The notes: a model not told the origin generated them from the letters alone. DNA of 64,000 bases from an archaeon (GCA_018693315.1 JABHLR010000004.1:100387-164386); one strand, 5' to 3'. Shown: positions 20,871 through 57,591, numbered from the stretch's first letter. A program made the numbers and translations.

Positions 20871-21207
20871 GCACATCGTCCACGCAATCAAAAAGAGCGG
20901 TGATATCATGGGTTTTTTTTACACTCTCCCAAACATCATAAGGAGAAACTCTTCCAGCTTTTATTGCCTCAACTAATTCAGCTTCTTCTGCATTGTCTAA
21001 AAATTCTTGAGCGAAGGCCACTGCCGCTGCCGAATAAAAATCCTGCCCTATTTTCCTATCTGCGTGAGTAAAAGGAATTTTAGCAACATCTACATAACGT
21101 TCAGCATCTCTAATTCTAAAAGAAACATCACCCCGATCTGTACAATATATGTGCGCTACATTGTTTTCAGATTCACCAAGCAGACCCCAAATAATTCTCC
21201 CCATCAC
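20857..21207 (-). CDS. Hypothetical protein (116 aa)
   Basis: ORF only. By eye its codon composition differs from its neighbours (more A/T-ending codons). Confidence 0.4.
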   Translation of the reverse strand: MMGRIIWGLLGESENNVAHIYCTDRGDVSFRIRDAERYVDVAKIPFTHADRKIGQDFYSAAAVAFAQEFLDNAEEAELVEAIKAGRVSPYDVWESVKKTHDITALFDCVDDVPIGC

Positions 21208-42114: not shown

Positions 42115-42471
42115 ATGGCACCAAAAAAGAAGACAAAAACAAGATATGTTGATGTAAATGTAAACAAAGGAAATTTCGTATCAAAGTTAATTGGAGGGAA
42201 GAAAACACACGATTTTTCAGACGTAAAATTACTGAGAAACCTATTAAGCAACGAAAAAGCAAGGATTCTTTACGCCCTGAAATCCAAGAATCCAAAGTCA
42301 ATATACGCTCTAGCAAAACTTTTAGGCAGAGATTTCAAATCAGTGAGAGACGACATAAAAGTCCTAGAAAGATTCGGATTCATCGAGTTTCACTCTGAAA
42401 AAACTGGCAAGAGAGAGGCCTTGAAACCAGTTTTGGTGATAAGCAAACTTCAGGTAATCATAAACATTTAG
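42115..42471 (+). CDS. Winged-helix (ArsR/MarR-like) transcriptional regulator
   Basis: 118 aa. LLSNEKARILYALKSKNPKSIYALAKLLGRDFKSVRDDIKVLERFGFIEF. Confidence 0.6.
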   Translation: MAPKKKTKTRYVDVNVNKGNFVSKLIGGKKTHDFSDVKLLRNLLSNEKARILYALKSKNPKSIYALAKLLGRDFKSVRDDIKVLERFGFIEFHSEKTGKREALKPVLVISKLQVIINI

Positions 42472-42965
42472 GCAAGAACACTACAAACCTTCATTCTAAT
42501 AACTAAGCTATCAGAGCCCGAAACAATGCTCCTTTGTGCTGCACTCACACTACCAGTACAATTCCCCCCAGAAATCCTCAATTTTCCCTCTTCTCCAATA
42601 TCATCCTTCACAAGGAAATCAACCTGATAATAACTCACAGCCGCCTCACTCTCCATCATAGCATCAACAACACTAAGCAAACTCTCATTCAGATACCCAC
42701 ACGCAGACTTCTCCAAATTACTACACTGATCAATCTGATGACAACTCTTAAACAACGCCTCGAAATCATCATAAGCCGGCTCATAAACAATCGCGCACTC
42801 AGTCGTATGTTTCATCAACGCATCCAGCATATTCTCAACCTCAAGGCTCTCAACCGCCTCAGGCGAATCCCTAAGCGACATAATCAGAAAAACCATCAAT
42901 CCGACCACAACAAGCACAACTATCAACACAAATCCAACAATTTCCTGCTGTCCACGCTTATTCAT
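42468..42965 (-). CDS. Class III signal peptide (prepilin-like) protein, 165 aa
   Basis: N-terminus MNKRGQQEIVGFVLIVVLVVVGLMVFLI. Cys-containing globular C-terminal part. Confidence 0.6.
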   Translation of the reverse strand: MNKRGQQEIVGFVLIVVLVVVGLMVFLIMSLRDSPEAVESLEVENMLDALMKHTTECAIVYEPAYDDFEALFKSCHQIDQCSNLEKSACGYLNESLLSVVDAMMESEAAVSYYQVDFLVKDDIGEEGKLRISGGNCTGSVSAAQRSIVSGSDSLVIRMKVCSVLA

Positions 42966-43461
42966 TTATTTTCACCCCCACAACCAACTTCCCGACTTCA
43001 CACCTATCAAAAGCCGAACCCTCTTCACGAACCCTCTTACAAATCGAAACGTAAGTCGAATAAGTTTTCACATTACTCTGCCCACTATCATAAATATCAT
43101 AAAAATTACAACCAAGCCCAGGGCACTTCTTAACCGAATCAAACGCAGGATAAATCTTATACACGCCAACCGACGCCACAGGCCAAAACACATTATAAGC
43201 CCCGCTAAAATTACTAGACATAACCACCAACTTATCTTCATCAACAGTCATCGTCTCACTAGAATCGTAATTCAACTCAGGCATATCAGCGATCACCCTC
43301 AACGACGAAATAGCCTGATCCTTCTGCAATTGCGCCGCAGTCCCACGAACATCTTTAAACTGAATCCCAATAAAAAACAAACCAACCAGAATGAAAAACA
43401 AAAACACAGCCATAATCATAAACGCCATCTGCTGAATCTTCATCTGCCCAATTTTCCTCAT
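42958..43461 (-). CDS. Class III signal peptide (prepilin-like) protein, about 167 aa
   Basis: N-terminus MRKIGQMKIQQMAFMIMAVFLFFILVGLFF. The ATG overlaps the upstream stop as ATGA. The track ORF extends to 43476. Confidence 0.55.
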   Translation of the reverse strand: MRKIGQMKIQQMAFMIMAVFLFFILVGLFFIGIQFKDVRGTAAQLQKDQAISSLRVIADMPELNYDSSETMTVDEDKLVVMSSNFSGAYNVFWPVASVGVYKIYPAFDSVKKCPGLGCNFYDIYDSGQSNVKTYSTYVSICKRVREEGSAFDRCEVGKLVVGVKINE

Positions 43462-44441
43462 CGCCACATTCCGCACAACTCCCTTTTATTTTTTTTACCA
43501 AGATTATCAGAAGTCATCCTCATGCTCATCAAATTATCAGCAGTCGAATTAAACAACATCCCGCTCCACACAATCAAATCCGATTTTATATTCGTGTCAC
43601 ACCCTCGAGAATCCATCAAATCACCCTTAGACGCAAACTCCTCAGCAATCTTACCAGCACGATACATCAACCGCTCAACATTACACTCATAAACAGCCTT
43701 GTCCGAAAAAATCGCACCATACATCAAACTCCCAACATACTTCAAATCACCACCAGAACCCTTGCTCACAACCCCCGCATCAAAAACAGAATCACAATTA
43801 CTCTGACAAGATCCATAAACCATCATATCACAACCATCACCATTCCCGAAACAAACTTTAACGGCATCAGCAACGCTACAGTTTGACAATTCCGACCCCA
43901 ATGGCATACCAGTTGGATAATCAAATTCAATATTAGGAATTCCCAAACCCAAAACTTCATCAACAACTTCCTCTGGCGCATTAATAAAACAATAATCTTC
44001 AGCCGTCAAAAATATCAAATCAGCAACTTCATACGGGAAATCAAACCCCTTCGAAAAAACATAATAATCCTCACCAGAATTCTGCTCCGACGAAAAAATA
44101 TATTTATTATGAATCGACGTCGCACCCCCAGCCAAATTCCATTCCTCGCCAACATTCGATCGAGTCGACACAGAAATATCATTCTTTCCAAATCCACTTC
44201 CCAAACAAATATTATTTATCCGAGTCTCATCATTAAACGAAATCCGTCCAAACGAACTCTCTCCAAAACCAACCTGCAAAGGATCAGTAATTATTGCAAT
44301 ACTTTTCGCAACCTCAGTATCACTCTGAAACCTCGCCGTATCCCCGGCCTGCATCGCCCCATAAATCGCCAAAAACAAAATAGCCCCACCAACAATTATT
44401 GCAAACAACCAAACAAAATTAAACTGACCCAATTTATTCAT
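43458..44441 (-). CDS. Class III signal peptide (prepilin-like) protein, 327 aa
   Basis: N-terminus MNKLGQFNFVWLFAIIVGGAILFLAIYGAMQ. Multiple Cys pairs downstream. Confidence 0.55.
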   Translation of the reverse strand: MNKLGQFNFVWLFAIIVGGAILFLAIYGAMQAGDTARFQSDTEVAKSIAIITDPLQVGFGESSFGRISFNDETRINNICLGSGFGKNDISVSTRSNVGEEWNLAGGATSIHNKYIFSSEQNSGEDYYVFSKGFDFPYEVADLIFLTAEDYCFINAPEEVVDEVLGLGIPNIEFDYPTGMPLGSELSNCSVADAVKVCFGNGDGCDMMVYGSCQSNCDSVFDAGVVSKGSGGDLKYVGSLMYGAIFSDKAVYECNVERLMYRAGKIAEEFASKGDLMDSRGCDTNIKSDLIVWSGMLFNSTADNLMSMRMTSDNLGKKNKRELCGMWR

Positions 44442-44926
44442 GCTACAATTACCAATTTATCATAAAATCCTTTCTTAATAGTAAGTCCAGCCTCGACATT
44501 AACACAATAAGGATTCTCTTCAAAAGTAATTTTCTCAACATCAATATGTTCAATCAACTTCCACTCCATTCCTTCAGCATATTCAGGCGGCACCAAAAAA
44601 GTATTAGCAGCATAAACATCATAATTTCTAATCGCTTCATAGGCAGGCCCAGGGTTAGTTATAGTATCAGACAAATTGGCAATACAAACCTGTTTAACGC
44701 CATCAGGCAAATCAATTTCAAAAACAGCCTCACTAAACTGCCCGCCCATCGACTCATCTACAGCATCCTGAAACTCAGCGTAAAACATTCCAACTCCAGA
44801 ACTCCGACCAATATCAAGAAAATACCCAACCGCGATAAAAGCAATCACCACAAAAACCACTATCAAAAATATCGCAAAAATAATACCAAACGGCATACTC
44901 ATCGTCTGTTGACCTCTTTTTTTCAT
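44438..44926 (-). CDS. Class III signal peptide (prepilin-like) protein, 162 aa
   Basis: N-terminus MKKRGQQTMSMPFGIIFAIFLIVVFVVIAFIAV. Confidence 0.6.
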   Translation of the reverse strand: MKKRGQQTMSMPFGIIFAIFLIVVFVVIAFIAVGYFLDIGRSSGVGMFYAEFQDAVDESMGGQFSEAVFEIDLPDGVKQVCIANLSDTITNPGPAYEAIRNYDVYAANTFLVPPEYAEGMEWKLIEHIDVEKITFEENPYCVNVEAGLTIKKGFYDKLVIVA

Positions 44927-44940
44927 AATCAGCTAAAGAT

Positions 44941-44956
44941 AAAGATGTTTATAAAA
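44941..44956 (-). promoter_or_regulatory. Internal promoter-like element ttttataaacatcttt, 14 nt upstream of the ATG at 44926
   Basis: The 16-mer is identical to 47106-47121 and sits at the same distance from a start codon. Confidence 0.45.
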
Positions 44957-44975
44957 CTTCCAATTTTAAAGACTA

Positions 44976-46361
44976 TCAAAACTTTATTATGGCACCATAG
45001 GTTGTTTCAATCTTTTTGTGATAACCGTCACGACTCTCTGTTAACTCATCTGTGGATCCGAAGCCAACACTAGCGCCACCAACTTTTTTTTCAATCCACA
45101 TCCTGCTAGCAGTGCCCCCAACACGATCAGGGACGGTATAAGCCTCAATAGCATCCTTTATACTAACTTTAAATTCCTTAGGAGGACCGACTTGAGAAAA
45201 AGTATGCGAATGAGCGGGTAATCCATTCCCAAGCAAATTCACGCGGCCAACTTCAAGGTTTTGACCCCCTGCTCCCCTAATAAGATCCTCCGACTCGAGA
45301 TCCAGCCATGATTTTTTATCCACAGGATCATAAGTAAATTTATAGGTACTATCCCCACTCTCGATCACGCTAATGGAATTCATATCTCTCTCAGCCCCAC
45401 TCACAGAAACACTTTCTCCAAAAGTAAAACTATCCTCACCCACTACATAATCTTGTCCAGGAAGCAGAACCCTAGTATCTTCACCCAGTAAAGAATATTG
45501 TCCCGAAACCTCTCCTGGAATAACCTTCCCATCAAAATCAAGGAAATTATCCAACTCCCCCCTCCCTCGAAGTACACTCCCAAACACTTCATCTTCAGCA
45601 ATTTCGATTCCTTCCCCCGTTGGATCAATATCAGAAACTCCTTCCACTCCTTTCTTGGTCCACTTGACACTATCCTCACCAGGGAGAACTTTCAATACCC
45701 CATTTTCATATTTAACCTGAGTACCCTTTTCTATATCAAGAGTTTCCTCTCCAATTTTAAAAGAAGTAGCCTCGCTCGCGGTTAAATCAGCCTGGACAAT
45801 ACTCCCTTTAGAATCCAATTCTACGGAAGATCCACTTTGAATACTTTCAAATTTATTGCCCTTAATGTCTAGGCTACCATCCTTATCAAAAGTCACTTTT
45901 GAACTAGAGCTACCCTTAACTTTTTCAAGAGTTACACCATTCCCAGAAATATCTTCAGCTTTCAAATCCCCTCCAATAAGGTCCCCGAATTCTTGACTTT
46001 CATCCCCAAATTGAATAGTTCCTTCCTCAAAGCCACCCTTTTCTTCAAATTGCATATTTGAAGTAATCTTGGCCCCCTTTTGCATATATCCATCTACTTT
46101 ACTATAGGTGTTTAGCACTTGGGCAAGTTCTGGAGAAGTATCAGCCAGCGCCTTCATCGCCTCCCCTTTTCCAAATTCAACAATACAAGACGTAGGATTC
46201 GTAGCGCACATCGCCTTACTAACAATCCCCGCAAGTTCTGGAGACGCCATTTGCATTCCCTGCGTCCCAAAAGACATAAGGGGATTAGCACTAACAACCC
46301 CAATTAACAAAATCAACAAAATCCCTATCGATTCAAACTTAAACCAAGGTCTCATTCCCAC
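44976..46361 (-). CDS. Secreted G/E/D/S-rich protein, 461 aa (large partner of module 3)
   Basis: Signal-like N-terminus (FESIGILLILLIGVVSANP), GTG start. No family recognised. Only 2 Cys, unlike the giant proteins. Confidence 0.55.
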   Translation of the reverse strand: MGMRPWFKFESIGILLILLIGVVSANPLMSFGTQGMQMASPELAGIVSKAMCATNPTSCIVEFGKGEAMKALADTSPELAQVLNTYSKVDGYMQKGAKITSNMQFEEKGGFEEGTIQFGDESQEFGDLIGGDLKAEDISGNGVTLEKVKGSSSSKVTFDKDGSLDIKGNKFESIQSGSSVELDSKGSIVQADLTASEATSFKIGEETLDIEKGTQVKYENGVLKVLPGEDSVKWTKKGVEGVSDIDPTGEGIEIAEDEVFGSVLRGRGELDNFLDFDGKVIPGEVSGQYSLLGEDTRVLLPGQDYVVGEDSFTFGESVSVSGAERDMNSISVIESGDSTYKFTYDPVDKKSWLDLESEDLIRGAGGQNLEVGRVNLLGNGLPAHSHTFSQVGPPKEFKVSIKDAIEAYTVPDRVGGTASRMWIEKKVGGASVGFGSTDELTESRDGYHKKIETTYGAIIKF

Positions 46362-47091
46362 CCCCTACTTGTATCGCAAATGAATAAACATATCCGATTT
46401 CTTCATTAAGCACAGATGCCCCATCTTCCAGTAAAAAGAAAAGAGAATCACCCTCTTGGCTCATCGTAACATTTAGATCCTGCTCCAATAGGTAAAAAAA
46501 ATCCACCGTCCCCCCTAACTCCTCTCTCATCCAAACAATATTATCAGCAGCCTTATAATATTTGCTAAAATTAACCGGGACAACATAGTCAATATTGTCC
46601 TCAAAAAGAATAGAATTATCCCCCTTTGTTTTTGTCAAAGAATAGTCCACAGCAAAAGAGACAGTTTCGCTAAGACTAATAGTTGGAGAAAATTTCAAGA
46701 CTTTTATTTCATAACCTTGATCACTGAAATATGAAAAATTATCAATACAAGCGTTTACATTATCCAAAAAGAAAACCTCAAAATCACTTCTAATTTCTTC
46801 TAGGGATTCGAGCTGCTTTTTATTCTCATAAAACAAATAACTAATGGCGTTGTCTCCAAGATTTATAGATTTTTTTTGTTCAATATCACCACCCCTTAGA
46901 CCCAATATCGCCAAAGATTTCAGCCCCTCTACTTCAATGCAATCTTCTAGAAGTTTCTCAGGATTTTCTAAATTGCCATCTTTTTCAGAAAGTTCACGAT
47001 TACTAGAAAATAACGTAAAAAACGCAACGACAATAACAACAATAATTATAGCAATAATAATAAAAACCGTAACTTGCCCACCTTTTTTCAT
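46339..47091 (-). CDS. Class III signal peptide (prepilin-like) protein C, 250 aa
   Basis: N-terminus MKKGGQVTVFIIIAIIIVVIVVAFF. A divergent relative of the 249-aa and 269-aa proteins upstream. Confidence 0.6.
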   Translation of the reverse strand: MKKGGQVTVFIIIAIIIVVIVVAFFTLFSSNRELSEKDGNLENPEKLLEDCIEVEGLKSLAILGLRGGDIEQKKSINLGDNAISYLFYENKKQLESLEEIRSDFEVFFLDNVNACIDNFSYFSDQGYEIKVLKFSPTISLSETVSFAVDYSLTKTKGDNSILFEDNIDYVVPVNFSKYYKAADNIVWMREELGGTVDFFYLLEQDLNVTMSQEGDSLFFLLEDGASVLNEEIGYVYSFAIQVGGGNETLV

Positions 47092-47105
47092 AGCTCATAA
47101 ACAAC

Positions 47106-47121
47106 AAAGATGTTTATAAAA
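47106..47121 (-). promoter_or_regulatory. Internal promoter-like element ttttataaacatcttt, 14 nt upstream of the ATG at 47091
   Basis: Identical 16-mer and spacing to 44941-44956. Confidence 0.45.
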
Positions 47122-50100
47122 TTATAGAAAGTTTCTCGAAGGCCTAACAATAACAGAACAATCAGCATCCTCATTCCTAAATTCATCCCTACACTTAATG
47201 TAGAAAGTCTCTTCATTATTCCACTCAGCAACATGAACACTCGTATTCGCATAAGGCATTTGTGTTCCCTCATCAAAGCTAAAATCACAATCGTCATATG
47301 TGTAAGCACACTCGCTATCACGGACAGTCACAAGCTTCAGCATATTACTCTCCTCATAAATCCTAGCAACAACCGGCGCATTCTGGTCAATATCCAACTC
47401 AAAATCAGCAGTATCTACAACCAAATTCCCACCCTCATCAACACACTTCACATAATACTCCTTATCACCCTCAGTCAAATCCAATCTCTGCGTATGAATC
47501 CCATCCTCAGTATTAGTATCAAAGAAAGCAATATAATCATTTTCATCACCAGTCTCTGAGTACGAACAAATAGCCCTACCATCATTACACCCAAACAAAG
47601 TCTCAACATACAACTCAACAGGCATCGGACTAACAGCCCCGAAAATCGTCTCATTAGGTCTCAAGTTCTTCATCTTCAAACCAGTACTTCCCCTCAGGCT
47701 AAATGCATAACTCTGCGCCATCTCATTCCGCTCGTTCTCAGCATTTCCAGCATGATCCTTACATCTAATATAGAACTTCGTATCATCCCTCGAAATCCCA
47801 GTCAATTCAGTAGCACAAGTAAACAACTGCTCAGCATTAGCCTGATACAGCTCATTATTACAGCTCATCAATCCCTGCATATTATCAAAGTCCTGATCCT
47901 GCGGACTCCACCTACATTCGGCCGGCTCATTCGTATAAAACTTGACGTTAGCAGTATCCTGATCCTCAGCAACACAACCACCATTCAAGACCGAAGTAGC
48001 CTCAACCTTAGGAGCAGTGCTATCAGGAGTAGGGTCAACACAGAACTTCACAGCATACTCAGCCTCGTTCTCATTCCCATTCTTGTCCTTACACCTCAAG
48101 AAGAAAGTCATATCCTTCCCATTCTCAAGAACCAAAGACGAATTCTGCAAATCCGCAGCGCTAGGCAAAGAGAACGTTTCGGAATGATTATAGGAGTATA
48201 AATTACTACCACCAACATAAGCTCTCATGTCATCAAAAGTCACAGTATGATTAAAGTCAATCTTACACTGCCCAGGCTCATCCAAAGCAATACCGAATTC
48301 CAAAGGAGTAAACGCCTTCAAGCAACCGTCGCTCGCATTCATATTCGTAATCGTAAACCCAGGCCCAGGCGGAGAATTCTTAACACCAGTATAATCATGA
48401 CCACGACTCAAGTCTTCGTAATTCGGTTTAATCATCGGCGGCACAACATCGTTCGGCCTAACATTCACACAAATCTCATTATCAGTCCCAACATTCTCAA
48501 GCTCACAATTCTGCCCCAAAGCCTTACATCTATATTCAGAACAAGGAAGCGTATCATCATTACATTCCTCACAAACATCCCCACCACTCGGCGCCTGCCA
48601 TGGCATACAATTAAACTCAACAACTTGCGTCTCCGTAGTCCTATACATCATAACAAAAACAATCGCAGCAACACCAATTCCAATTACAGGAGCATATGCA
48701 GCAACAGAACCAAACGCCTCATATGTGGCAACGGCCTTGTATGCAAATGCACCAGCAGCCAAAGCAGTAGACAAAGCCTGAACATTATTCTCTTCCATTC
48801 CAAGCAAATTCCCAATCAACATACCAGCACCATAAGCAATCGCAGCCCACTGCAAACCACCGATTAGAGCATCAGCAATTCCACCGCCACCAGCACCAAG
48901 CCATCCAGAAAGCGTAGATCCAGGCTCCCCTGCTTGCATCTGAGTCATTCCTTCTGCATCTGGCAATGCATCAAAAGCCTCGGTAAAAGTCTTTCCGTCC
49001 TGAGTTATCTTCGCAAGATAACCACCACTATCAGTCTTACTAAAAGCTACAGTCGCATCCTTAAGAGCAGTATTTCCAAGCTGCCCAGTTACTCCAGAAT
49101 AACTACTCCCCGCTTGAAATGTACCCTTCAGGTCATAAAGTTGATTTCCAGCCCACATGCTAGATTCGCCGCTAGGAGTTCTCGTAAACACAGGCGTCTT
49201 CGACCCAGCAAGATTTGGAGCTACAGTGGGACCACTCGCACTATTTCGTGTAACACCAAAATATTCTTCAGCACCACTTTGCGAAACAGGACCAGCTCCT
49301 TGGTTAGACGCCGCCCTCTGTAAATCAGATGGACCATTACTACCAAAAATACCCTTATCAAACAAGTCTTTCATAGGCGCAACAGCCGTAGCTGCTTGAA
49401 CAACCCCGCCAATAGAACTACCCTTACTCTTTTTAGTATCTTTAGTAGCCTCACCAGTAATCGTCCCAACAACCATCCCAGTCACAGCCGCAACCATTCC
49501 AGTAAATCCACCACTAATAATATTCACAGTATTTGGAGCAAACTTCTTATCTTCTTCATCTACAAGCCACTTGTAACCGTCGTCAGTATAAGTCCCCTTA
49601 TAATTCACATAACCACCACAATCCCCAAGCGAAGCACAAACCCTATTAGCGTCCAGTGCCCACGGCTCTTCCAAACACTCACAACCCTCAACGCAATCAC
49701 TTCCTCCAATTAAACCCTCTTCGAAAACAACAACACACTTTGCATTAGCTTGACCGCAAGTCTGCTGAGCAGTACTCTCTTCCCAGAAATTCAATCCAGG
49801 CGCAAAGTTAGGAACACAAACTCCACTAGGCCTATTAGTAACAGTCTCTTCCTCAACTTCCTCTTCCTCGTCATCCCCACCAAAAATAGCCTGACCAGTT
49901 ACAGGAGAAATGCCACCCTCAAACTCACCACTAGAAGTCGGATTACTAAACCCAGGAGTCCCGCCAGTAGGATTCGAAAACTTATCCCCCTGTTGCTCAG
50001 CGCCACCAATGACCATCCCAGTCACAGCAGGCAACCAAATACAGTCCCTCTTGTCATTATTAGTACAATCGTCCTCATCTTCCTGAGCAACACATTCCTG

Positions 50101-51285
50101 CCACCTATTCACACGACATCCAGAAGTCTGAAAATCACCAGCGTCAGTTTCAACAGAATCCTGATAACAAACCTCATTCCTAAAATCAGCACACGGCTCA
50201 ACCCTCACATCACCGTCAACACAAACTTCTCTATAATATCTCGAACCAACAGTATCCCCACCGTTTCCAGCCCCATCATCATAAACACACCACGACTCGC
50301 CATTAATCCTCGCATCCCCATTCCTATCAACACACTCAGTCCTCTGACAATAATTATCACCAGTCTCAGGCCCACCAAGATAACCCTCAAACTCAGCACA
50401 TCTCGAACCCAAGAAATAATCACAATTCCCACAGCTCATATCCGAACCATCATTAGGATCACAAACTCCATCAGCATCAAGTTTCTTCCCATTATTCCAA
50501 CTCCTAGCCTTATCCTCAGAATAAACATTCTCCCTGTTCCCACAAGAATCAGTCCAGAAAACATCACCCTGATAACAAACCGTATTAGTCTGCTTAGCAC
50601 AAGCAGTATTCAACTCCTCAGCCGAACACAAAAAGTCCTTGTAAAAAGTCCTCTGGCTAGACAAACTAACATTCGTCCCATTAACAGATTCAACCTTATC
50701 GCTAGCCCCACATTCACCACGAGTTGTAAATTGACAGACCCTATCGAAATCCTCCTCATAAACACAAGCACCAGTATCCTGAGCCTGCGCAGTCGCAATA
50801 CAATCAACCTCATTGGTTATCCCAGTCCTATAATCATTAGCAACCCCAAAAAAAGTACTCAACCTTTTACATCGAACCAACGGAACAAACGCAGCCTGAT
50901 CAGCAATAATACAACATCCCAACTGACACTGCGGAACCTGCCCAATTTCCCGATCATCCCAAGTCCCACCCTGAGCATTACAAACTCTCTGCGGCGTATT
51001 CTCCATACAAATCCCTTCCTCAGATTCATAACAAGTCCCAAGCCGACAATACGAAGTCGTCTCACACGAAGTCGGCGCACTCAAAAAACTATCACTACAA
51101 TCAGACTCATCAGCATTAACACACCACGCACCATCCTCAGTCTTCTCACAACAAGTACTCGGTTCACTCAATTCAGATTGCGCAGCAACGCTAGGAGTCA
51201 CATCAGCGACCATAAACGCAAACGCAAACATCGACAAAATCAACAATACAGTTTCAAATCCTGCAATTGCTTTTTTGTTCATCAT
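47122..51285 (-). CDS. Giant Cys-rich surface/membrane protein, 1387 aa (paralogue of 52116..55784)
   Basis: Layout: N-terminal hydrophobic segment (KKAIAGFETVLLILSMFAFAF); Cys-rich region (aa 44-560); Gly/Ala-rich TM segments (about aa 588-881); a Cys knot (CMPWQAPSGGDVCEECNDDTLPCSEYRCKALGQNCEL); four C-terminal repeats ending (F/Y)(F/Y)xxCxDxxGN. Confidence 0.7.
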   Translation of the reverse strand: MMNKKAIAGFETVLLILSMFAFAFMVADVTPSVAAQSELSEPSTCCEKTEDGAWCVNADESDCSDSFLSAPTSCETTSYCRLGTCYESEEGICMENTPQRVCNAQGGTWDDREIGQVPQCQLGCCIIADQAAFVPLVRCKRLSTFFGVANDYRTGITNEVDCIATAQAQDTGACVYEEDFDRVCQFTTRGECGASDKVESVNGTNVSLSSQRTFYKDFLCSAEELNTACAKQTNTVCYQGDVFWTDSCGNRENVYSEDKARSWNNGKKLDADGVCDPNDGSDMSCGNCDYFLGSRCAEFEGYLGGPETGDNYCQRTECVDRNGDARINGESWCVYDDGAGNGGDTVGSRYYREVCVDGDVRVEPCADFRNEVCYQDSVETDAGDFQTSGCRVNRWQECVAQEDEDDCTNNDKRDCIWLPAVTGMVIGGAEQQGDKFSNPTGGTPGFSNPTSSGEFEGGISPVTGQAIFGGDDEEEEVEEETVTNRPSGVCVPNFAPGLNFWEESTAQQTCGQANAKCVVVFEEGLIGGSDCVEGCECLEEPWALDANRVCASLGDCGGYVNYKGTYTDDGYKWLVDEEDKKFAPNTVNIISGGFTGMVAAVTGMVVGTITGEATKDTKKSKGSSIGGVVQAATAVAPMKDLFDKGIFGSNGPSDLQRAASNQGAGPVSQSGAEEYFGVTRNSASGPTVAPNLAGSKTPVFTRTPSGESSMWAGNQLYDLKGTFQAGSSYSGVTGQLGNTALKDATVAFSKTDSGGYLAKITQDGKTFTEAFDALPDAEGMTQMQAGEPGSTLSGWLGAGGGGIADALIGGLQWAAIAYGAGMLIGNLLGMEENNVQALSTALAAGAFAYKAVATYEAFGSVAAYAPVIGIGVAAIVFVMMYRTTETQVVEFNCMPWQAPSGGDVCEECNDDTLPCSEYRCKALGQNCELENVGTDNEICVNVRPNDVVPPMIKPNYEDLSRGHDYTGVKNSPPGPGFTITNMNASDGCLKAFTPLEFGIALDEPGQCKIDFNHTVTFDDMRAYVGGSNLYSYNHSETFSLPSAADLQNSSLVLENGKDMTFFLRCKDKNGNENEAEYAVKFCVDPTPDSTAPKVEATSVLNGGCVAEDQDTANVKFYTNEPAECRWSPQDQDFDNMQGLMSCNNELYQANAEQLFTCATELTGISRDDTKFYIRCKDHAGNAENERNEMAQSYAFSLRGSTGLKMKNLRPNETIFGAVSPMPVELYVETLFGCNDGRAICSYSETGDENDYIAFFDTNTEDGIHTQRLDLTEGDKEYYVKCVDEGGNLVVDTADFELDIDQNAPVVARIYEESNMLKLVTVRDSECAYTYDDCDFSFDEGTQMPYANTSVHVAEWNNEETFYIKCRDEFRNEDADCSVIVRPSRNFL

Positions 51286-52091
51286 GCGTCATACCCCGAA
51301 GGCCAAGCCAAACTTCGGCTAGCAAACTGAAATTTATTTCCAAAATCTTTGTGTTCTAAAATATAAATCGTCGTCCCATCGCTCCGCTTAATCTTATCAA
51401 TAATATAATCAGGATAAATCACCATCATAGCGCCAGTATCAGAGTCACCATATTTCGTCTCAAATTGCAAAATCGAAGTCGCAATCATAACCATATCATA
51501 AACAGGCGAATTCACATTCACATTAAACCTCGTAAACCTCGTAGCTCCAACCGTCGTCGGTGCATCAATCAAAACCCTAACAGCCCCAGGCTCAATCACA
51601 ACATCATATGTAACAGCCCCAGAAGTAACATCATAACCACGCGATTTCAAATCATTAACCGAAGCATCATAACAAGCATCAACATCACCCCGAATCAAAA
51701 GCTCCATCTGCTCATCAAAAGTAGTCTTCAAAAACGGAACCTGAACCGAACACGTCTCATAGAAAGCATTCGTGTAACAAAGATAAGTCATCTCCTCGCC
51801 GTTGTAAGCATAAGTAAATTCAGGATTAATAAAGCCGGCCCTTTTCTCCAGCTCTCCAATCGCATCTTCAACAGAATCTTCAACACAATTCTCAAAAGCC
51901 AAGCCCCTTCCGGCAGCCGAAAAATAAGTCGGTTGAAGCCACAGGAAAAAAATCAAAACAGCAGAAACTATGACTATCGCAATAATAATAAATATCGTCA
52001 CTTGCCCCTTTTTTCGAGGGCTAGCGCCCCGAGAAAAACATGAAGGGTTGTTCATCAATCCTACTTTTTTATTCATGTTTATTTCAACCAT
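51282..52091 (-). CDS. Class III signal peptide (prepilin-like) protein B, 269 aa or less
   Basis: ...RKKGQVTIFIIIAIVIVSAVLIFFLW. Homologous to protein A (shared Y-x-G-x-E-x-x-YLCY, RG(F/Y)DV, IY-x-L). The start is uncertain (52091, 52076 or 52055). Its stop overlaps the giant gene's start (ATGATGA). Confidence 0.6.
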   Translation of the reverse strand: MVEINMNKKVGLMNNPSCFSRGASPRKKGQVTIFIIIAIVIVSAVLIFFLWLQPTYFSAAGRGLAFENCVEDSVEDAIGELEKRAGFINPEFTYAYNGEEMTYLCYTNAFYETCSVQVPFLKTTFDEQMELLIRGDVDACYDASVNDLKSRGYDVTSGAVTYDVVIEPGAVRVLIDAPTTVGATRFTRFNVNVNSPVYDMVMIATSILQFETKYGDSDTGAMMVIYPDYIIDKIKRSDGTTIYILEHKDFGNKFQFASRSLAWPSGYDA

Positions 52092-52115
52092 CTTTTATTT
52101 ATAAATTCTATTATA

Positions 52116-55100
52116 TTAGAGAGCCCTAGCTTCTATGGAACATCCCGAAGGTACATTCCCAAATTCATCCTCACATTTAACATAATAAGTCTCACCACGA
52201 GTAACACCAAAGCTATGCTCCTTCCCGGTCCCAGCAGATTGCCCAGTAGTCCAATTAAATCTACAATGAGCCGTGTCATATTTACACTCAGCATTCTCAG
52301 TCGTAATAATATTAAAGCTCCCACCAGACTGCCAAATCCTAGCAATCTGCGGCGTCGAACTATCTTTTATAATTCTAAACTCAGTAGTCCCACGAGCAGT
52401 ATCCCCAGTCTCATCCTTACACTCGACATAAATCTTATGATCACCAACACGCCAATTCATAGGCCAACGATGCGGCCTCTCAGCTCCAGTCTGAAATAAA
52501 GTATCAGCCAAATTATCAAAGCTATCAAACGAATAAGAACAATGATGCCACTCTCCACCACCAGAAGTCATAATCTGAAAATCAACAGTAGCAAAATTAG
52601 TATTAACCTCAAAATCCTGACTCGGCTCAATCCAATCAACCTCAAGCTTCTTCTCCGGCTTCCTCAACCTATAAACAAAACTCTCCGCGTTCGCATTCCT
52701 CTCATCACCACGCCCAACAGCGTCGAGAAATCCCTGATCCTCACATCTCACAAAGAAATCACTAGTCACACCAGAAACAGGCATCGTCGCAACACACTTC
52801 GTAGAAGACCCATACAACCCAGCAATATTAGGGCTACAATCAAAATCATTCTCCATCAAAGAATAATCCATATCAGTCGTGTCCCACTTACAATCAACCG
52901 CATCCTCATTCACATAAACCTCAACATCCTGCGAAGTCGCATCGAAACTAACCAACCCATCATTCCCGGGAACAAATCTCTTAACAAGCGGACCAGTCAC
53001 ATCAGGACCCTGCACAACACACAAATCAATTGTATAAAACCCAGGGGTCGTATGCCCCTTCTGATCATGGCACCGAGTATAAATCTTCAAATCTCCAGTC
53101 CAATTCAAACCACGACTCTCACCATTACTCGGATCCGGCAAAGCAAACGAAACCGTGTGATTATAATCATAATAATCATCCTTGTAAATCTCAGTTTCAG
53201 AAGTCTCCCCAAACTCAGTCATCGCCAAATCAAAAGTACATATCGCCGGCTCATCAGTATTAATTCCAAACAGCAATTCAGTATGAGCAGCAATACACCC
53301 ACCATTACTACCATCGACCGAAGTAATACTAACCCCCGAAGCCGAATCCCCGCTATAAACTTCATTATCAGAAATCACACCAAACTGCGGACTAATAACC
53401 GGCGGCGTCGCATCATTAGGATTCCCGTCAATACACAATTCATTATCAGTCCCCTTATTCAACAACTCACACGCGGCCCCCAAACTCTTACAACGATATT
53501 CCGAACACGGCTTCAGCGGATCCCCATTACACAACTCACAATCAGCAGCGCCAACAGGAGGCTGCCACGGACTACACGTAAACACAACCTCAACAGGATC
53601 GCAATCACCCATCCCAAAAAACAAAGCCGCAATCATAAGCACAATACCAATAATTAACACAGGCCAGAAAAGCCCACCTAAAGAAGCAACCAAGGTAGTA
53701 TATTCACCAATTAATGCAACGCTAACCATAGAAGCACCAACACTCATCAACGCCGTCCCAACAGGACTAAGCCCTAAAGCCTTCGCAAGCAAAATCCCAA
53801 CAACAGCTCCAATCGCACCCGCTATCGCCGACGCTGCCATTCCACCATATCCAGCAAGCGCCCCGCCAGTACCAGTAATAGCACCCATACCAGGTGCCCC
53901 AAGGGTCGCAGGAGCAAACCATCCAAGTTTAAATCCAGCAAGCAAAATCCCAGCCATCCCAACATTCAAACCCAACATAATATTAGAGTGATCCGCAGGA
54001 CCCTCGGCATCTTCAGGAGCAGGACCCGGCCCACCAAATAATCCAGCAGCCGCCAAATAATCATCATAATCCTCAACCTCAGCAAACTGCCCAGGAACAG
54101 CCGTCGCCATAGCCACCAAAGTAGAAACCGAATCAGCACTCAGCATCGGCGAATTCACAACCTTATAATTCTCAGTAAACTTCCCAGCAATATTAACCTC
54201 GCCGCCACAATCCCCAAGCTTCCGACACATATCATTCATCCCAATCGCAAAACCAGATTCCTCACAAGCGCAATTCGTATCACAAACACAACTCCCAGTC
54301 ATCGTCTGCTTGTAAATCACAGTACAAGTCTGATCCGCCATCGCACAAGTCGATTTCGCAGTAGCCTGATATCTTTTATCCGTAAAACTAGAACCACCAG
54401 GATACCGCGGCGTGCAAATATCAAACTTAAATTTATCCGCAATATCAACATGCTCAATCCTACAATTCAAAGTCTCCTCGCATACCTCCTTTCCACCCTC
54501 CTCGTTGTTCAAAGCGATACACTCTCTCCAATTGTTCGCGACACAAGCAGCATTCCGGAAATCCACCTCACCAGCTCCAATATCCATCGTATTTGACTGA
54601 GTACAAATCTGATTCCGATAATCAGCACACGGCTCAACATTCACATCACCCTGATTACAAACATACTTCCAATGCCTCGACCCAACAACATCATCACCGT
54701 CGCCAATCTTCCCATCATAAACACACCAAGACTCCCCAGGCTTGTATTTCACACCATCAAACATACACGAAGTATCCCTACAAAAAGAATCCCCAGAATC
54801 TACAGTAAAACTATTCTCAGAAGCCGACGCGCAAATTCCACCAGCAAACCGATCACAATTCCCGCAACTCGCACTATTCGCACTCCCACTAGAATCCCCA
54901 CAAAGCCCATCGGTCTTCACATTCTCCCAGTAAGAATCATCATCAACCTTCGACGAATCATAAATATTAGCAGCATTCCCACACGAGTCAAGAAAATAAA
55001 CCCCATCTTTACCGTCGACACAAGTCGTCTGCTCAGTCTTAACGCAAGAAGTATTTAGACCATCAGCAGTACAAAGCACATCAGGATGAAACTCGCCACT

Positions 55101-55784
55101 CAAACTAGCACATTCCTCAGCAGTCCCAAATTTACAACTATTCCCAGCAGTAACACAAGCCCCAGTCACCTGAGTCTCCGCAGCACCAAGACATTCCAAA
55201 ACATTCATATCACTTTTCCACTCAACAATCGCGCCATTCGTCCCACGAACATCACAAGCCCCACGCGTCTCATAATAAGATTCAGTCCCAACAATACAAC
55301 AAGCTTCCTGAGCCGCAGGCATATTACAATTCGGATCCGCAACCCAATCCACATCACAATGAGATTCCTTAACATTCGGAACATAAGTCCCAGCAGCCTC
55401 ATTTATACAACAACCCTTTTTACAAAACGAAGTCGCAGCGCAATCCGCACCGTCGACAAAACCAACTCCATCCTCACAATTTCCCGCAGTCGCCGATCCA
55501 CATATTTCTCCATTCACAGCAACCTCACAGCAACCAATCCCAGTTCCAGCAGCACTAACAACAGGGATCATCGGAGCCCGAAGCCGCGCAATAATTCCAC
55601 CAACAAGTTTCCCAAAAAATCCAGCCCTCTCGTCAGCACCATCTTCATACTGTTTCATACTCGCTCCAAAAGCATCATCAGTCAAAGCAACACCATAACT
55701 AAAAGCGAAAAGCGAAACTAACATCAACGTCAACTCGAAACCCGCAATTATTTTTCTATTATCCATCTTACATTCCCGGCGCAA
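52116..55784 (-). CDS. Giant Cys-rich surface/membrane protein, 1222 aa (paralogue of 47122..51285)
   Basis: Same architecture as its paralogue. Shared motifs: DSCGN, SCGNCDRFAGG, GESWCVYD, VGSRHWKYVC..GDVNVEPCADYRNQIC, LGDCGGEVN, CSPWQPP..CELCNGDPLKPCSEYRCKSLGAACEL. Gly-rich TM block about aa 601-725. An alternative start lies at 55766 (MDNRK). Confidence 0.7.
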   Translation of the reverse strand: MRRECKMDNRKIIAGFELTLMLVSLFAFSYGVALTDDAFGASMKQYEDGADERAGFFGKLVGGIIARLRAPMIPVVSAAGTGIGCCEVAVNGEICGSATAGNCEDGVGFVDGADCAATSFCKKGCCINEAAGTYVPNVKESHCDVDWVADPNCNMPAAQEACCIVGTESYYETRGACDVRGTNGAIVEWKSDMNVLECLGAAETQVTGACVTAGNSCKFGTAEECASLSGEFHPDVLCTADGLNTSCVKTEQTTCVDGKDGVYFLDSCGNAANIYDSSKVDDDSYWENVKTDGLCGDSSGSANSASCGNCDRFAGGICASASENSFTVDSGDSFCRDTSCMFDGVKYKPGESWCVYDGKIGDGDDVVGSRHWKYVCNQGDVNVEPCADYRNQICTQSNTMDIGAGEVDFRNAACVANNWRECIALNNEEGGKEVCEETLNCRIEHVDIADKFKFDICTPRYPGGSSFTDKRYQATAKSTCAMADQTCTVIYKQTMTGSCVCDTNCACEESGFAIGMNDMCRKLGDCGGEVNIAGKFTENYKVVNSPMLSADSVSTLVAMATAVPGQFAEVEDYDDYLAAAGLFGGPGPAPEDAEGPADHSNIMLGLNVGMAGILLAGFKLGWFAPATLGAPGMGAITGTGGALAGYGGMAASAIAGAIGAVVGILLAKALGLSPVGTALMSVGASMVSVALIGEYTTLVASLGGLFWPVLIIGIVLMIAALFFGMGDCDPVEVVFTCSPWQPPVGAADCELCNGDPLKPCSEYRCKSLGAACELLNKGTDNELCIDGNPNDATPPVISPQFGVISDNEVYSGDSASGVSITSVDGSNGGCIAAHTELLFGINTDEPAICTFDLAMTEFGETSETEIYKDDYYDYNHTVSFALPDPSNGESRGLNWTGDLKIYTRCHDQKGHTTPGFYTIDLCVVQGPDVTGPLVKRFVPGNDGLVSFDATSQDVEVYVNEDAVDCKWDTTDMDYSLMENDFDCSPNIAGLYGSSTKCVATMPVSGVTSDFFVRCEDQGFLDAVGRGDERNANAESFVYRLRKPEKKLEVDWIEPSQDFEVNTNFATVDFQIMTSGGGEWHHCSYSFDSFDNLADTLFQTGAERPHRWPMNWRVGDHKIYVECKDETGDTARGTTEFRIIKDSSTPQIARIWQSGGSFNIITTENAECKYDTAHCRFNWTTGQSAGTGKEHSFGVTRGETYYVKCEDEFGNVPSGCSIEARAL

Positions 55785-56517
55785 ACGCGCAACTCCTTAC
55801 AGCAAATCTAAACTCCGCCCCACTTCGACGATCAACTAACCTATATATCTTACTATTCGAATAATCAATCCGCCGAATATCATACTTCGGATACAACAAC
55901 ATATAACCATTATACTCAAAATTACAATACTGCGACTCCGCATTCACAACATCCATCGAAATCTGAACCAACTCATAAATCGGCGTCAAAATCTCAGTAT
56001 CAAAATTCCCAAAACTCTGCGACGCGCCTTCCTTAGAAACATCAATCCTCTTCGACAAACTAATCTGAACCATCTCCGGCAACAAATTAACCGAATACTC
56101 AGTCGGCCCACCACCGACATCAAAACCACGATCCTCAAAATCAATCCTCATGGTGTTAAAACACTCCTGAACCTCATCCTGCGTATCCCGAACAATTTCA
56201 GCCTCGATCTGCATCTCCAACATCGGATGAATATTATAACATCCCTTGTAAAAATCCGCCTGATAACACAAATAATTCCACTCATCCCCATCATACGCAA
56301 TCGCATGCGACGGCACAATCTCCCCACCATTAAACAACATCTTAGCGACGGAAACCTCAACAGCGTCCTTAACACACTTATCAACAAAAGCCTGAGGCCC
56401 CAAATCCGCCGGCGACTCAACATCAAAATCCCCAACAAACATAAACAACAAAATAATCCCAACAACTATCACAATCCCAATAATAATAAAAATCGTCACC
56501 TGACCTTTCTTATTCAT
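55768..56517 (-). CDS. Class III signal peptide (prepilin-like) protein A, 249 aa
   Basis: N-terminus MNKKGQVTIFIIIGIVIVVGIILLFMF. Its start overlaps the RHH stop (ATGA). Confidence 0.6.
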   Translation of the reverse strand: MNKKGQVTIFIIIGIVIVVGIILLFMFVGDFDVESPADLGPQAFVDKCVKDAVEVSVAKMLFNGGEIVPSHAIAYDGDEWNYLCYQADFYKGCYNIHPMLEMQIEAEIVRDTQDEVQECFNTMRIDFEDRGFDVGGGPTEYSVNLLPEMVQISLSKRIDVSKEGASQSFGNFDTEILTPIYELVQISMDVVNAESQYCNFEYNGYMLLYPKYDIRRIDYSNSKIYRLVDRRSGAEFRFAVRSCAFAPGM

Positions 56518-56699
56518 TTTCCAAAACCTCCCAAATCCTTCAAAGCCTCGACAAAACCACCATTCACATCCCGCTTCAACGCCTCAATCGCCATCTCAAT
56601 CACATGCGACTTGTTCCGAAACTTCCCATTTTTCAAAATCTCCTCGATATCTCTAACCGTGCCCGCATCCACACTCGCCGAAATTCTTTCTTTTACCAC
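56514..56699 (-). CDS. Ribbon-helix-helix (CopG-like) DNA-binding protein
   Basis: 61 aa, GTG start. MVKERISASVDAGTVRDIEEILKNGKFRNKSHVIEMAIEAL fits a beta-strand/helix/helix layout. Confidence 0.6.
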   Translation of the reverse strand: MVKERISASVDAGTVRDIEEILKNGKFRNKSHVIEMAIEALKRDVNGGFVEALKDLGGFGK

Positions 56700-56707
56700 G
56701 TTTCAAA

Positions 56708-56787
56708 TCGTAATACAATATAATACAAAGTAATATACAGTAACATTTCCTATTACTAAGTATTACGATTACTATTTAAACATTTCC
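56708..56787. promoter_or_regulatory. Repeat-rich upstream region of the cluster: 9-bp inverted repeat tcgtaatac/gtattacga plus direct repeats aacatttcc and several GTAAT/ATTAC units
   Basis: Inverted-repeat arms at 56708-56716 and 56760-56768. aacatttcc occurs at 56742-56750 and 56779-56787. The region is AT-rich and TATA-like. Confidence 0.4.
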
Positions 56788-56809
56788 ACTCAAAAATCAC
56801 AAACAAAAC

Positions 56810-57532
56810 CTAATCGTTCTCAACCCTCGGCGCCAAAACAAACCCAATCCCCATTCTCTCCCCGGGAAAATCCAACCTCAAAGGATAATCATCAGAAAAA
56901 TTCACAACCACCCTCGACGAAATCTTCCCAGCCTTAATGAATTTCATCAAATATTCCAAACTATATTTCGATTTCCCAGTCCCAAAAATCTCCAAATGCT
57001 CACCAGAAAATTCAGCCTTAGCGCTATTCAAATTCCCAGAACCAGCAACAACAAATTTCCCATCAACAATACTCAAAGCACAAGAATCCGCAACAATCTT
57101 CGCGTCCTCAACAGCCTGCGCAAAACCAGCCGCATCCATCTCAATCCTCGCGCCAAAATTCAACTCAGGAATTTCCTTATCCTCACTAGAGACCTCAATC
57201 AAAGCCAAACTAAAAACCCGCTTAACCTTATCAAAAATACTAATCTGCAACTTCCCTTCAACCTCCTCAAAAACAACACTCGAATTAACACCAGCCCTCT
57301 TCAAAATTTTCTTCAAATCATCAAGATTAACACCCCAAACCTCACTCCCCGCATCATACTGACTAAAACTTTCTTTCGGCAACTTAAAAATAACCAACGC
57401 AACATTCGCAGGATCAACAGCAATAATACTCATCCCCTCAGGCTGCAACTTAATCCTAACCTCAGTCACAACCTCAGAAACAATCGCAATCGCATCCCCC
57501 AACAACTTCGGATCATCCAATTTTAATATCAT
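56810..57532 (-). CDS. pcn: DNA polymerase sliding clamp PCNA
   Basis: About 240 aa with a two-domain clamp pattern. ...GMSIIAVDPANVALVIFKL...KYSLEYLMKFIKAGKISSRVVVNFSDDYPLRLDF. Start taken at the ATG at 57532; the track start at 57538 is TTG. Confidence 0.9.
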   Translation of the reverse strand: MILKLDDPKLLGDAIAIVSEVVTEVRIKLQPEGMSIIAVDPANVALVIFKLPKESFSQYDAGSEVWGVNLDDLKKILKRAGVNSSVVFEEVEGKLQISIFDKVKRVFSLALIEVSSEDKEIPELNFGARIEMDAAGFAQAVEDAKIVADSCALSIVDGKFVVAGSGNLNSAKAEFSGEHLEIFGTGKSKYSLEYLMKFIKAGKISSRVVVNFSDDYPLRLDFPGERMGIGFVLAPRVEND

Positions 57533-57591
57533 AGACAAAAATCTATAGATTTTTTTCTCGCAAGGACTTTGTCATTGCAATATCTAAAACC
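57530..57591 (-). promoter_or_regulatory. PCNA upstream module with a 19-nt hairpin/palindrome (57560-57578); paralogue of 698-761
   Basis: gcaaggactttgtcattgc versus gcaagggctttgccattgc. The two differences fall on positions that pair with each other (G-C becomes A-T). Confidence 0.5.

Follow-up and report, generated by a model that had tools for sequence, protein, structure and literature searches.

Between positions 42468 and 56699 of a 64-kb stretch of archaeal DNA (GCA_018693315.1 JABHLR010000004.1:100387-164386; hereafter, the window) lies a minus-strand gene cluster that encodes a small regulator, seven prepilin-like proteins, two giant Cys-rich membrane proteins, and one secreted protein. 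What could such a set of proteins make together? A sequence-only reading of the window had proposed a lineage-specific surface filament, adhesion or cell-cell contact apparatus that matches no named system. The question gains interest from the organisms in which we found the cluster. Pacearchaeota and Woesearchaeota rank with the most abundant and most diverse archaea that have not been cultured; their metabolism is minimal, and they are seemingly attached to hosts. We know of no molecular basis for that attachment. The cluster provides a concrete, clade-wide candidate for attachment or envelope machinery, with a mechanism that we infer from sequence patterns and predicted structures.

Gene order in the cluster is conserved in Pacearchaeota and Woesearchaeota

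The cluster is densely packed, its open reading frames (ORFs) being joined by stop/start overlaps or by gaps of at most 50 nt (Table 1). The sequence-only reading had counted twelve ORFs; the actual number is eleven, namely, the gene of a ribbon-helix-helix (RHH) protein, the genes of three pilin-like proteins A, B, and C (referred to below as adaptors), those of two giants, the gene of a 461-amino-acid (aa) protein, and four genes of small pilin-like proteins, p162, p327, p172, and p165. The coordinates, the strand, and the stop/start overlaps given earlier were all recovered in an ORF check.

A scan of one genome per GTDB species returned 474 encoding stretches, and 76 loci, labelled almost exclusively as Pacearchaeota, Woesearchaeota or Nanoarchaeota, were kept. 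Gene order was read from tblastn searches of the kept loci with all window proteins. The conserved order is PriS(-), PCNA(+), a small regulator (either RHH or winged helix-turn-helix, wHTH), A, giant 1, B, giant 2, p162, p327, p172, p165, wHTH(-), and an S-layer-like gene. It holds in ca. 70 species-level Pacearchaeota/Woesearchaeota genomes, down to ca. 30% protein identity, and the cluster is present in every adequately covered related locus. The four small genes have the same order in all loci that contain at least two of them (28/28), and all four are found in 20 loci. With overlaps between neighbours and a fixed order, the cluster genes behave as an operon. The gene neighbourhood, whose conservation in relatives had been named as a check of the earlier proposal, is thus very strongly conserved across the kept loci. 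Ten core genes are always together at the same place, six of them with the hallmark of type IV filament substrates, and every component is at present annotated as 'hypothetical'. Judged by gene order and distribution, the core cluster can be taken as a hallmark of Pacearchaeota/Woesearchaeota-type DPANN archaea.

Seven cluster proteins have prepilin-type N-termini

A census that covered all six frames of the window and asked for [KR]x0-2[GAS]Q close to an ORF start, with 12 or more hydrophobic residues behind it, returned exactly seven matches, each at the start of one of the pilin-like genes. These are the same seven proteins for which a short basic leader, a G-Q and ca. 20 hydrophobic residues had been described from sequence; since the census gave only these genes, we conclude that the pattern is not a chance product of an AT-rich genome. 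The leaders of 7/7 proteins are short and basic and have G, A or S at -1, as is characteristic of class III signals, and a hydrophobic stretch of ca. 20 residues directly follows the predicted cleavage site in each of them. The leader that precedes the G-Q of adaptor B is unusually long if translation starts at 52091; the leaders of its orthologs are short. A strict FlaFind-type pattern would presumably fit only some of the seven proteins.

The motif is kept in six orthologous families in ca. 70 genomes, at 25-75% identity. Among orthologs of these families, the residue at -1 is most frequently G, then A, then S, and positions -2 and -3 are mostly occupied by K or R. The +1 Gln was present in every ortholog recovered, the ortholog search itself having required [GAS]-Q; it is independently invariant in two alignments (A3 and A4). 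The motif was found in 28 of the 30 p162 orthologs and, with A, G or S at -1, in 23 of the 27 p172 orthologs. In the p165 family, a Glu at +3 is invariant together with the +1 Gln and four Cys residues. Methanococcus EppA substrates have leaders of 5-13 residues that end in Gly and are followed by a +1 Gln (PMC3875500). The N-termini behave in agreement with this description, as was expected when the pattern was first assigned to class III (prepilin-type) signals with a +1 Gln. The G/A/S-Q sites are predicted cleavage positions for class III signal peptidases.

Outside the cluster, a 198-aa ORF (21204-21800, minus strand) starts with MKNILKNKS↓VAIFIIVVLVVLF (here and below, the arrow marks the junction of leader and helix), that is, with a basic leader and a hydrophobic helix and no G-Q. 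It may encode a further pilin-like or anchored protein.

Adaptor type and giant type track each other

The adaptors, each of ca. 250 aa, are paralogs; A and B are 30-32% identical. Orthologs of adaptor B were found in 76 loci at 26-75% identity, and Q6 of adaptor A is invariant in its family alignment. The family as a whole is large, with 5,876 sequence clusters at E ≤1e-3 among 1.84 billion representatives (503 of them at ≤1e-30), and its best matches are nearly all ca. 250 aa long, none being fused to another domain. Of the adaptor genes with enough downstream sequence, 111 of 151 are directly followed by an ORF of at least 450 aa; behind most of the remaining ones, one or two unrelated small genes intervene before a long ORF, which is open at the end of the 1.5-kb scan. 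Adaptor type and giant type were concordant in 134/144 cases (A with giant 1 in 71, B with giant 2 in 63) and discordant in 10. Since the types track each other with only these 10 exceptions, we conclude that adaptors and giants have been cognate since their duplication. This speaks for their being specific partners, physically or functionally. Adaptor-giant fusions (the Rosetta-stone test) were found neither among the top 150 representatives nor among the top 120 homologs.

The third pair behaves differently. Adaptor C matches the A and B positions in relatives at just 23-32% identity, and the 461-aa protein has three weak partial homologs among 5.8 billion proteins; neither has an ortholog in the related loci. 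A more distant genome (L084) encodes one of the 461-aa homologs (P0243) behind a C-like adaptor (L084_4325), immediately next to PCNA; the locus also holds a B/giant pair and the four small genes. Other extra pairs, each consisting of an A-like adaptor and a giant without central membrane segments, are present in loci L001, L004, L013, and L047. Because the C-like/461-type pair recurs in L084 and pairs with segment-less giants occur elsewhere, the system evidently accepts extra adaptor-plus-cargo pairs, and the pair of adaptor C and the 461-aa protein is a lineage-specific accessory. It is to this pair that the term 'lineage-specific', originally applied to the whole cluster, has to be restricted, the core being common to the Pacearchaeota/Woesearchaeota clade.

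An AlphaFold2 (AF2) model of adaptor A, built with 31 homologs (predicted local distance difference test score, pLDDT, 82; predicted template modelling score, pTM, 0.74), contains a membrane helix at residues 4-26, a low-confidence or disordered linker, and a compact alpha/beta domain with conserved Cys residues. A Foldseek search of the PDB with this model gave no match of value (best E 0.01); the top hits, XLF and SAS-6, have TM-scores of at most 0.17 and were dismissed as meaningless.

In ca. 40 related loci (among them L007, 14219-14837, L026, L011, L077, L069, L031, and L073), small accessory genes separate adaptor B (or A) from its giant, so this junction is a hot spot of insertion. The inserts include MNT/HEPN-type toxin-antitoxin pairs (at least seven loci, by motif), GNATs, four-helix-bundle ('23S rRNA IVS'-like) proteins, and small membrane proteins; the adaptor/giant junctions in the window carry no insertion. 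ORFs of ca. 100 aa found between adaptor B and giant 2 in ca. 40 relatives were considered as an overlooked conserved component and rejected, as they are heterogeneous insertions.

The giants are conserved Cys-rich proteins with predicted Ig-like chains

The giants, the largest surface proteins of the neighbourhood, contain 67 and 66 Cys residues and are paralogous, with 31-32% identity over N-terminal and C-terminal regions of ca. 500 residues each. By hydropathy, each has an N-terminal hydrophobic segment and three to four central ones. In giant 1, an N-terminal KIIAG↓FE helix is followed by a Cys-rich N-domain (residues ca. 85-540), an acidic/Gly-rich linker, Gly-zipper-like hydrophobic segments (ca. 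600-723), and an immunoglobulin (Ig)-like beta-sandwich chain (ca. 730-1222). The low-complexity linker of giant 2 is longer (ca. 575-800, or ca. 230 aa) and joins the fused halves of the protein. At least 579 homologs of giant 1 were found, hundreds of them full-length and all of them hypothetical proteins with no Pfam domain; the listed matches are 37-63% identical to it, and one is 82% identical. Homologs with a labelled source come from Pacearchaeota, Nanoarchaeota or 'archaeon' metagenome-assembled genomes (MAGs), and one from 'Methanococcoides sp. SA1'. NCBI names one giant homolog 'glycine zipper family protein'.

The appearance of surface proteins is given to the giants by ca. 60 Cys residues that are invariant across the family and by a C-terminal part of 480 residues that is modelled as tandem beta-sandwiches. 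In the AF2 model of a 1174-aa ortholog of giant 1 (P0078; 40 homologs, pLDDT 77), an N-terminal helix is followed by a Cys-rich domain of mixed alpha/beta type, which is predicted well (38-533); 80 disordered residues and three helices of membrane length then lead to an all-beta C-terminal half (695-1174). Foldseek searches of the PDB and BFVD with this model returned almost solely generic Ig/FN3 arrays, all from the C-terminal half; the matches come from adhesins, receptors, phage tail proteins, the GhpA grappling hook, and the Bacillus Sap S-layer protein. No known pore former or fusogen was matched in either database. DUF2341 and a C-terminal beta-propeller, by which PilY1-type proteins are recognized, were found in the giants neither by Pfam nor in the AF2 model. 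The giants were also considered as targets of a diversity-generating retroelement; this idea was set aside, as the window contains no reverse transcriptase.

Some giant paralogs lack membrane segments and have ordinary Sec signals in place of the G↓FE helix. Giant 2 is often split in relatives into an N-domain protein with a Sec signal (495-644 aa) and a membrane/C-domain protein, sometimes with unrelated genes between them (L012, 14625-19203; L007, 14834-16615 and from ca. 21600 onward; L084, 9150-13867). Since both segment-less and split forms exist, we conclude that the two large domains of the giants are extracellular and that the central segments form a hairpin.

The N-termini of the giants (window positions 55700-55784 and 51230-51285; alignment A2) share a helix that the sequence-only reading had not described, KK-x-[IV]-[AV]-[G/S]↓[F/L/V]-E-x-x-L-M-x-x-S-x-F-A-F. 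In the split form of L012, the corresponding helix (KK-x-x-x-G↓[F/V]-E...S-x-F-S-F) goes with the membrane/C-domain protein. Since G or S stands before [F/L/V]-E in 27 of the 35 membrane-type giants, a divergent prepilin-like site, one with an acidic +2 residue, may be present in the giants themselves; we regard this pattern as a lead.

At the sequence level, the cluster matches no characterized system

Searches of Pfam and NCBIfam gave no significant match for any of the 10 non-RHH proteins, and the PDB, searched with profiles of the giant, adaptor and p165 families, returned nothing. The statement that the cluster matches no named system thus holds at the sequence level, and no profile match placed the giants or their partners in a characterized one. 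A search of the full-text literature found no description of the cluster or of its protein families.

Prepilin-like proteins combined with large adhesins are a known theme. The components, however, are new, and so are the cognate pairs, the occurrence of giants in split and fused form, and a synteny that spans the clade. The cluster would add at least two large families to the catalogue of archaeal surface structures, namely, the adaptors of ca. 250 aa and the giants, in which a Cys-rich N-domain is combined with an Ig-chain C-domain. Among described arrangements, the archaeal pilus locus of clade 1 (Epd-type), known from Methanococcus and Thermococcus, comes closest; it contains at least five minor pilins and two large DUF2341 PilY-like, adhesin-like proteins (PMC4858521; PMC3875500); an Epd-type system was also reported in DPANN (preprint 10.64898/2026.04.22.720090). 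As in Epd loci, a short basic leader that ends in Gly is followed by a +1 Gln and a hydrophobic helix, and one operon combines many different pilin-like genes with those of two large proteins that are putative adhesins; genes for the ATPase and the platform protein can be located apart from it. Unlike in Epd loci, there is no +5 Glu, no match to DUF361, Pilin_N or DUF2341, and no EppA, ATPase or TadC gene; the large proteins, Cys-rich and with membrane hairpins, form an unrelated family, and each has a dedicated 250-aa pilin-like adaptor, a pairing that is not described for Epd loci.

Other likenesses are more distant. Four small pilin-like genes in a fixed order, one of them much larger than the others, recall the FimU-PilVWX-PilY1 tip complex of bacterial type IVa pili and GspH-I-J-K of type II secretion systems, and in the former a non-pilin protein of more than 1000 aa (PilY1, thought to be located at the tip and to bind surfaces) is likewise encoded beside small pilins. 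This likeness is an analogy alone, with no sequence or fold similarity; the cluster, in contrast, is archaeal, it encodes two or three integral-membrane giants, each with its own adaptor, and the model contains neither a beta-propeller nor a vWA domain. The Sulfolobus bindosome, other PibD substrates that do not form filaments, and ArlF/ArlG share with the cluster prepilin-type N-termini, a surface complex rather than a long filament, and separately encoded assembly genes; unlike these systems, the cluster lacks solute-binding domains, has different folds, and includes giant partners. Finally, as in the SlaA/SlaB pair, a large membrane-anchored protein rich in beta-sandwiches is encoded near an anchorless S-layer protein. 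There is, however, no homology to SlaA/SlaB, the anchors in the cluster are an N-terminal helix and a central hairpin instead of a C-terminal helix, and between the cluster and the S-layer gene lies a regulator gene of divergent orientation.

Possible function of the cluster

The reading that we favour, and for which we see the arguments as evenly balanced, is that the cluster encodes a class III peptidase-dependent module: proteins similar to minor pilins would serve to anchor or display the giants as adhesin-like proteins, and the assembly machinery would be encoded elsewhere. Adaptors A and B, p162, p327, p172, and p165 (and, locally, C) would be made with class III (prepilin-type) signals, and a FlaK/PibD/EppA-type peptidase encoded elsewhere would cut after G/A/S, so that the mature protein would begin with Gln and continue as a hydrophobic helix. 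In the role of minor pilins, the four small proteins would assemble into a short bundle of pilin helices; this would be a short pseudopilus stub or, on a type IV filament, the tip or priming complex. Each ca. 250-aa adaptor would link one cognate giant to this bundle. Held in the membrane by the N-terminal G↓FE helix and the Gly-rich hairpin, the giants would display the Cys-rich N-domain and the Ig-like chain and bind the host cell or the cell's own envelope. Transcription from the repeat-rich promoter would be governed by the RHH protein (wHTH in other lineages). The sequence analysis shows the genes and their motifs, the adaptor-giant pairing, the synteny, the domain architecture, and the lack of matches to known families; we infer cleavage, assembly by type IV filament (TFF) machinery, the role of the adaptors, and the function in adhesion. 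Pacearchaeota are described as strongly host-attached, and ultrasmall cells bear pili-like appendages (PMC7906910), so the ecological context fits attachment.

A more specific version, that the cluster is a clade-defining host-contact machine in which a new adaptor family docks giants (perhaps processed at G↓FE) on a minor-pilin-like core, attaching the cell and possibly bridging it to its host, strikes us as unlikely; such a machine would differ in architecture from every described archaellum, pilus, bindosome or hamus.

Several results weigh against a peptidase-dependent module. As had been noted from sequence, the window contains no PilB/ArlI-like assembly ATPase, PilC/ArlJ-like platform protein or prepilin peptidase (its 20 other ORFs were scanned with Pfam), and none was found within 10 kb beyond either end. 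A scan for Walker-A and Asp-box motifs among 1458 long ORFs from related cluster regions (with flanks of up to 10 kb) also gave no match. A relaxed motif scan for small (60-150 aa) pilin-like ORFs with a G-Q site gave none in the window outside the cluster. No obvious major pilin was found in the window or within 10 kb beyond it; p162, p165 or p172 could take this part. At +5, where EppA substrates have Glu, the seven proteins have F, F, F, S, V, Q, and V. Class_IIIsignal/DUF361 (PF04021) gave no match at E up to 0.1-1, Pilin_N matched 1 of 20 p165-family members with a non-significant E of 0.036, DUF7289 matched 2 of 20 at a sub-threshold value of ca. 0.08, and no cluster protein had a significant DUF2341 match in the Pfam scan. 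Judging from its model, the adaptor A domain is not recognizably a pilin head, and its helix is not continuous with a beta-sandwich. Giants with membrane segments of their own are unusual for pilus-tip adhesins. In addition, giants that are conservative (invariant motifs, 30-50% identity clade-wide) and are encoded in a housekeeping region beside an S-layer-like gene fit an envelope role equally well. Of the surface filament or adhesion apparatus proposed earlier, a surface complex with class III-like signals and conserved synteny remains; the filament part is called into question by the lack of a pilin-family match, by an adaptor fold that is not pilin-like, and by the missing +5 Glu. The missing machinery is in itself not unusual, since the pilus genes of M. 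maripaludis are scattered over at least four loci, with the ATPase apart from the pilin/EppA operon (PMC3875500). Woesearchaeota MAGs are reported mostly to encode FlaI, FlaJ, and FlaK (PMC11606122; PMC8407392). None of the outcomes that had been named beforehand as refuting the earlier proposal was encountered.

The main rival is an envelope scaffold that forms no filament, with the giants as SlaB-like membrane stalks that hold the S-layer protein and the pilin-like proteins as struts (cf. ArlF/ArlG and the bindosome); we give it a minor, though real, share of the probability. If such anchoring of the S-layer were true, it would explain how Pacearchaeota/Woesearchaeota cells build their envelope. 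Because the position of the cluster beside the S-layer-like gene, with the wHTH gene between them, is conserved, a non-filament envelope role has to be reckoned with. The S-layer-like protein has a signal peptide and no membrane anchor, the cluster is as regularly present, and its sequences are as conservative, as this role would predict, and membrane segments combined with Ig-like arrays are found in many S-layer and anchor proteins, Bacillus Sap being among the fold matches. However, no sequence or fold similarity ties the cluster to any known S-layer anchor; the adjacency may just reflect general small-genome synteny, PCNA and PriS being equally conserved neighbours; and the varying number of pairs, together with lineage-specific extra pairs, resembles accessory adhesins more than a lattice component. 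The lack of a significant pilin-family match, the adaptor fold, and the lack of TFF genes nearby could also mean that the N-termini are plain uncleaved signal anchors of type II membrane proteins, unrelated to type IV filament machinery. Such anchors would have no reason to keep a small residue and an invariant Gln before the helix in six unrelated ectodomain families, in ca. 70 genomes and at 25-40% identity, nor would the motif be expected to be missing, as it is, from every other ORF of the window; since the site is invariant, we consider plain anchors quite unlikely.

Two further explanations concern what the giants might do. Their Gly-zipper segments might form a pore or a cytoplasmic bridge for feeding in the host membrane, with the pilin-like proteins pushing or positioning the giants. 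The central regions are Gly/Ala-rich, moderately hydrophobic and adjacent to long disordered linkers, one homolog bears the NCBI label mentioned above, and pili-like appendages were reported to extend into host cells (PMC7906910). The idea is a pure analogy, however; paralogs without any central hydrophobic region exist, nothing similar to known pore formers or fusogens was found in the PDB or BFVD, and in the split form of L012 the C-domain protein carries both the hydrophobic segments and the N-terminal helix, as a resident membrane protein might. Penetration of the host membrane thus appears distinctly improbable to us. A DNA-uptake pseudopilus, with the four small proteins as counterparts of the ComGD-GG minor pilins and the giants as receptors for DNA or another ligand, seems hardly credible. 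It would agree with the fixed order of the four small pilin-like genes, with the adjoining replication genes, and with the frequency of competence genes in ultra-small prokaryotes (PMC9938205), but the cluster has no ComEC, ComEA or DprA-like gene, no DNA-binding domain was detected in the giants, and the PCNA/PriS adjacency is probably plain synteny.

The regulator and the promoter region

The window RHH protein matches RHH_1 with an E of 0.043 and 14.2 bits, below the Pfam cut-off of 20.5. Of its orthologs, 13/14 match RHH_1 (best E 3e-7), and for this reason the identification of the protein as an RHH regulator, made earlier from sequence, stands despite the sub-threshold score. An RHH protein is encoded at the same position in 16 loci, and in many others (e.g., L003 and L004) a small winged-helix protein is found there. 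Upstream of the RHH start codon, a TTTAAATA box is present at a distance of ca. 75 nt, and dense GTAATA/TATTAC inverted repeats, with arms of 15-20 nt and 80-87% complementarity, occupy positions 56706-56770; box and repeats together lie within 56706-56787. The inverted-repeat region is plausibly an operator for the RHH protein.

Features of the cluster and its neighbourhood

Table 1. Features of the cluster and of the adjoining genes (positions in the window; ↓, junction of leader and helix)
Feature	Position	Strand	Basis
Putative promoter/operator region upstream of the RHH gene	56700..56809	-	sequence reading and inverted repeats
RHH (CopG-type) protein, 61 aa; first cluster gene	56514..56699	-	RHH_1 E 0.043; orthologs
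Adaptor A (pilin-like A), 249 aa; MNKKG↓Q and hydrophobic helix, Cys-containing alpha/beta ectodomain	55768..56517	-	motif, AF2 model
Giant 1, 1222 aa; probable ATG start at 55766	52116..55784	-	ORF, homologs, hydropathy, AF2 model of homolog P0078
Adaptor B (pilin-like B), 269 aa from first ATG; RKKG↓Q and hydrophobic helix	51282..52091	-	motif; paralog of A
Giant 2, 1387 aa; paralog of giant 1	47122..51285	-	ORF, hydropathy, split forms in relatives
Adaptor C (pilin-like C), 250 aa; KKGG↓Q and hydrophobic helix	46339..47091	-	motif; divergent paralog of A/B
Cys-poor secreted protein, 461 aa; Sec-type signal, partner of adaptor C	44976..46361	-	ORF; near-orphan
p162, 162 aa; KKRG↓QQ and hydrophobic helix; first of four conserved small genes	44438..44926	-	motif, conserved order
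p327, 327 aa, largest small pilin-like protein; NKLG↓QFNF and hydrophobic helix, 10 Cys	43458..44441	-	motif, conserved order
p172, 172 aa (probably 167 from ATG at 43461); RKIG↓QMKIQQM and hydrophobic helix	42958..43476	-	motif, conserved order
p165, 165 aa; NKRG↓QQE and hydrophobic helix; last cluster gene	42468..42965	-	motif; invariant Q+1, E+3, four Cys
HVO_A0114-family winged-helix protein, 118 aa, convergent with p165; membership in the system uncertain	42115..42471	+	Pfam PF25212 E 8.5e-18; same position and orientation in relatives
S-layer-like protein, 709 aa; Sec signal, no Cys, no membrane anchor; membership uncertain	39559..41688	-	Pfam S_layer_C E 1.7e-6

On the side of the RHH gene, the cluster is flanked by the genes of PCNA (56810-57538) and of the primase small subunit, PriS (58032-59621). 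The remaining ORFs of the window include those of ribosomal proteins, SecY, FtsZ, Spt5, and an M50 protease. The flanking genes mark an archaeal core-genome region.

On the other side, the S-layer-like gene lies directly downstream of the cluster also in loci L004, L016, and L035. Beyond it, two small N-terminally anchored, Cys-containing proteins are encoded on the minus strand at 38880-39452 and 38164-38883. Two uncharacterized surface proteins without a Pfam match are encoded on the plus strand. The first, of 613 aa (60982-62823), has a signal peptide, a large ectodomain and a Cys-rich stretch (ca. 395-500) and ends with a membrane helix and an Arg/Pro-rich cytoplasmic tail; the second, of 564 aa (35441-37135), is highly acidic and sequon-rich and has a signal peptide and a C-terminal membrane anchor. 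Just beyond the window start, the contig (L083, 11002-20855) contains the gene of the AglB (STT3) oligosaccharyltransferase and a run of glycosyltransferase genes, and a RuBisCO large-subunit gene is found beyond the window end (L082, 20835-21842). GC skew is -0.3 to -0.5 over most of the window and close to 0 at the plus-strand genes at 30-34 kb; the GC content of the cluster is slightly higher (0.43-0.46) than that of its surroundings (ca. 0.40).

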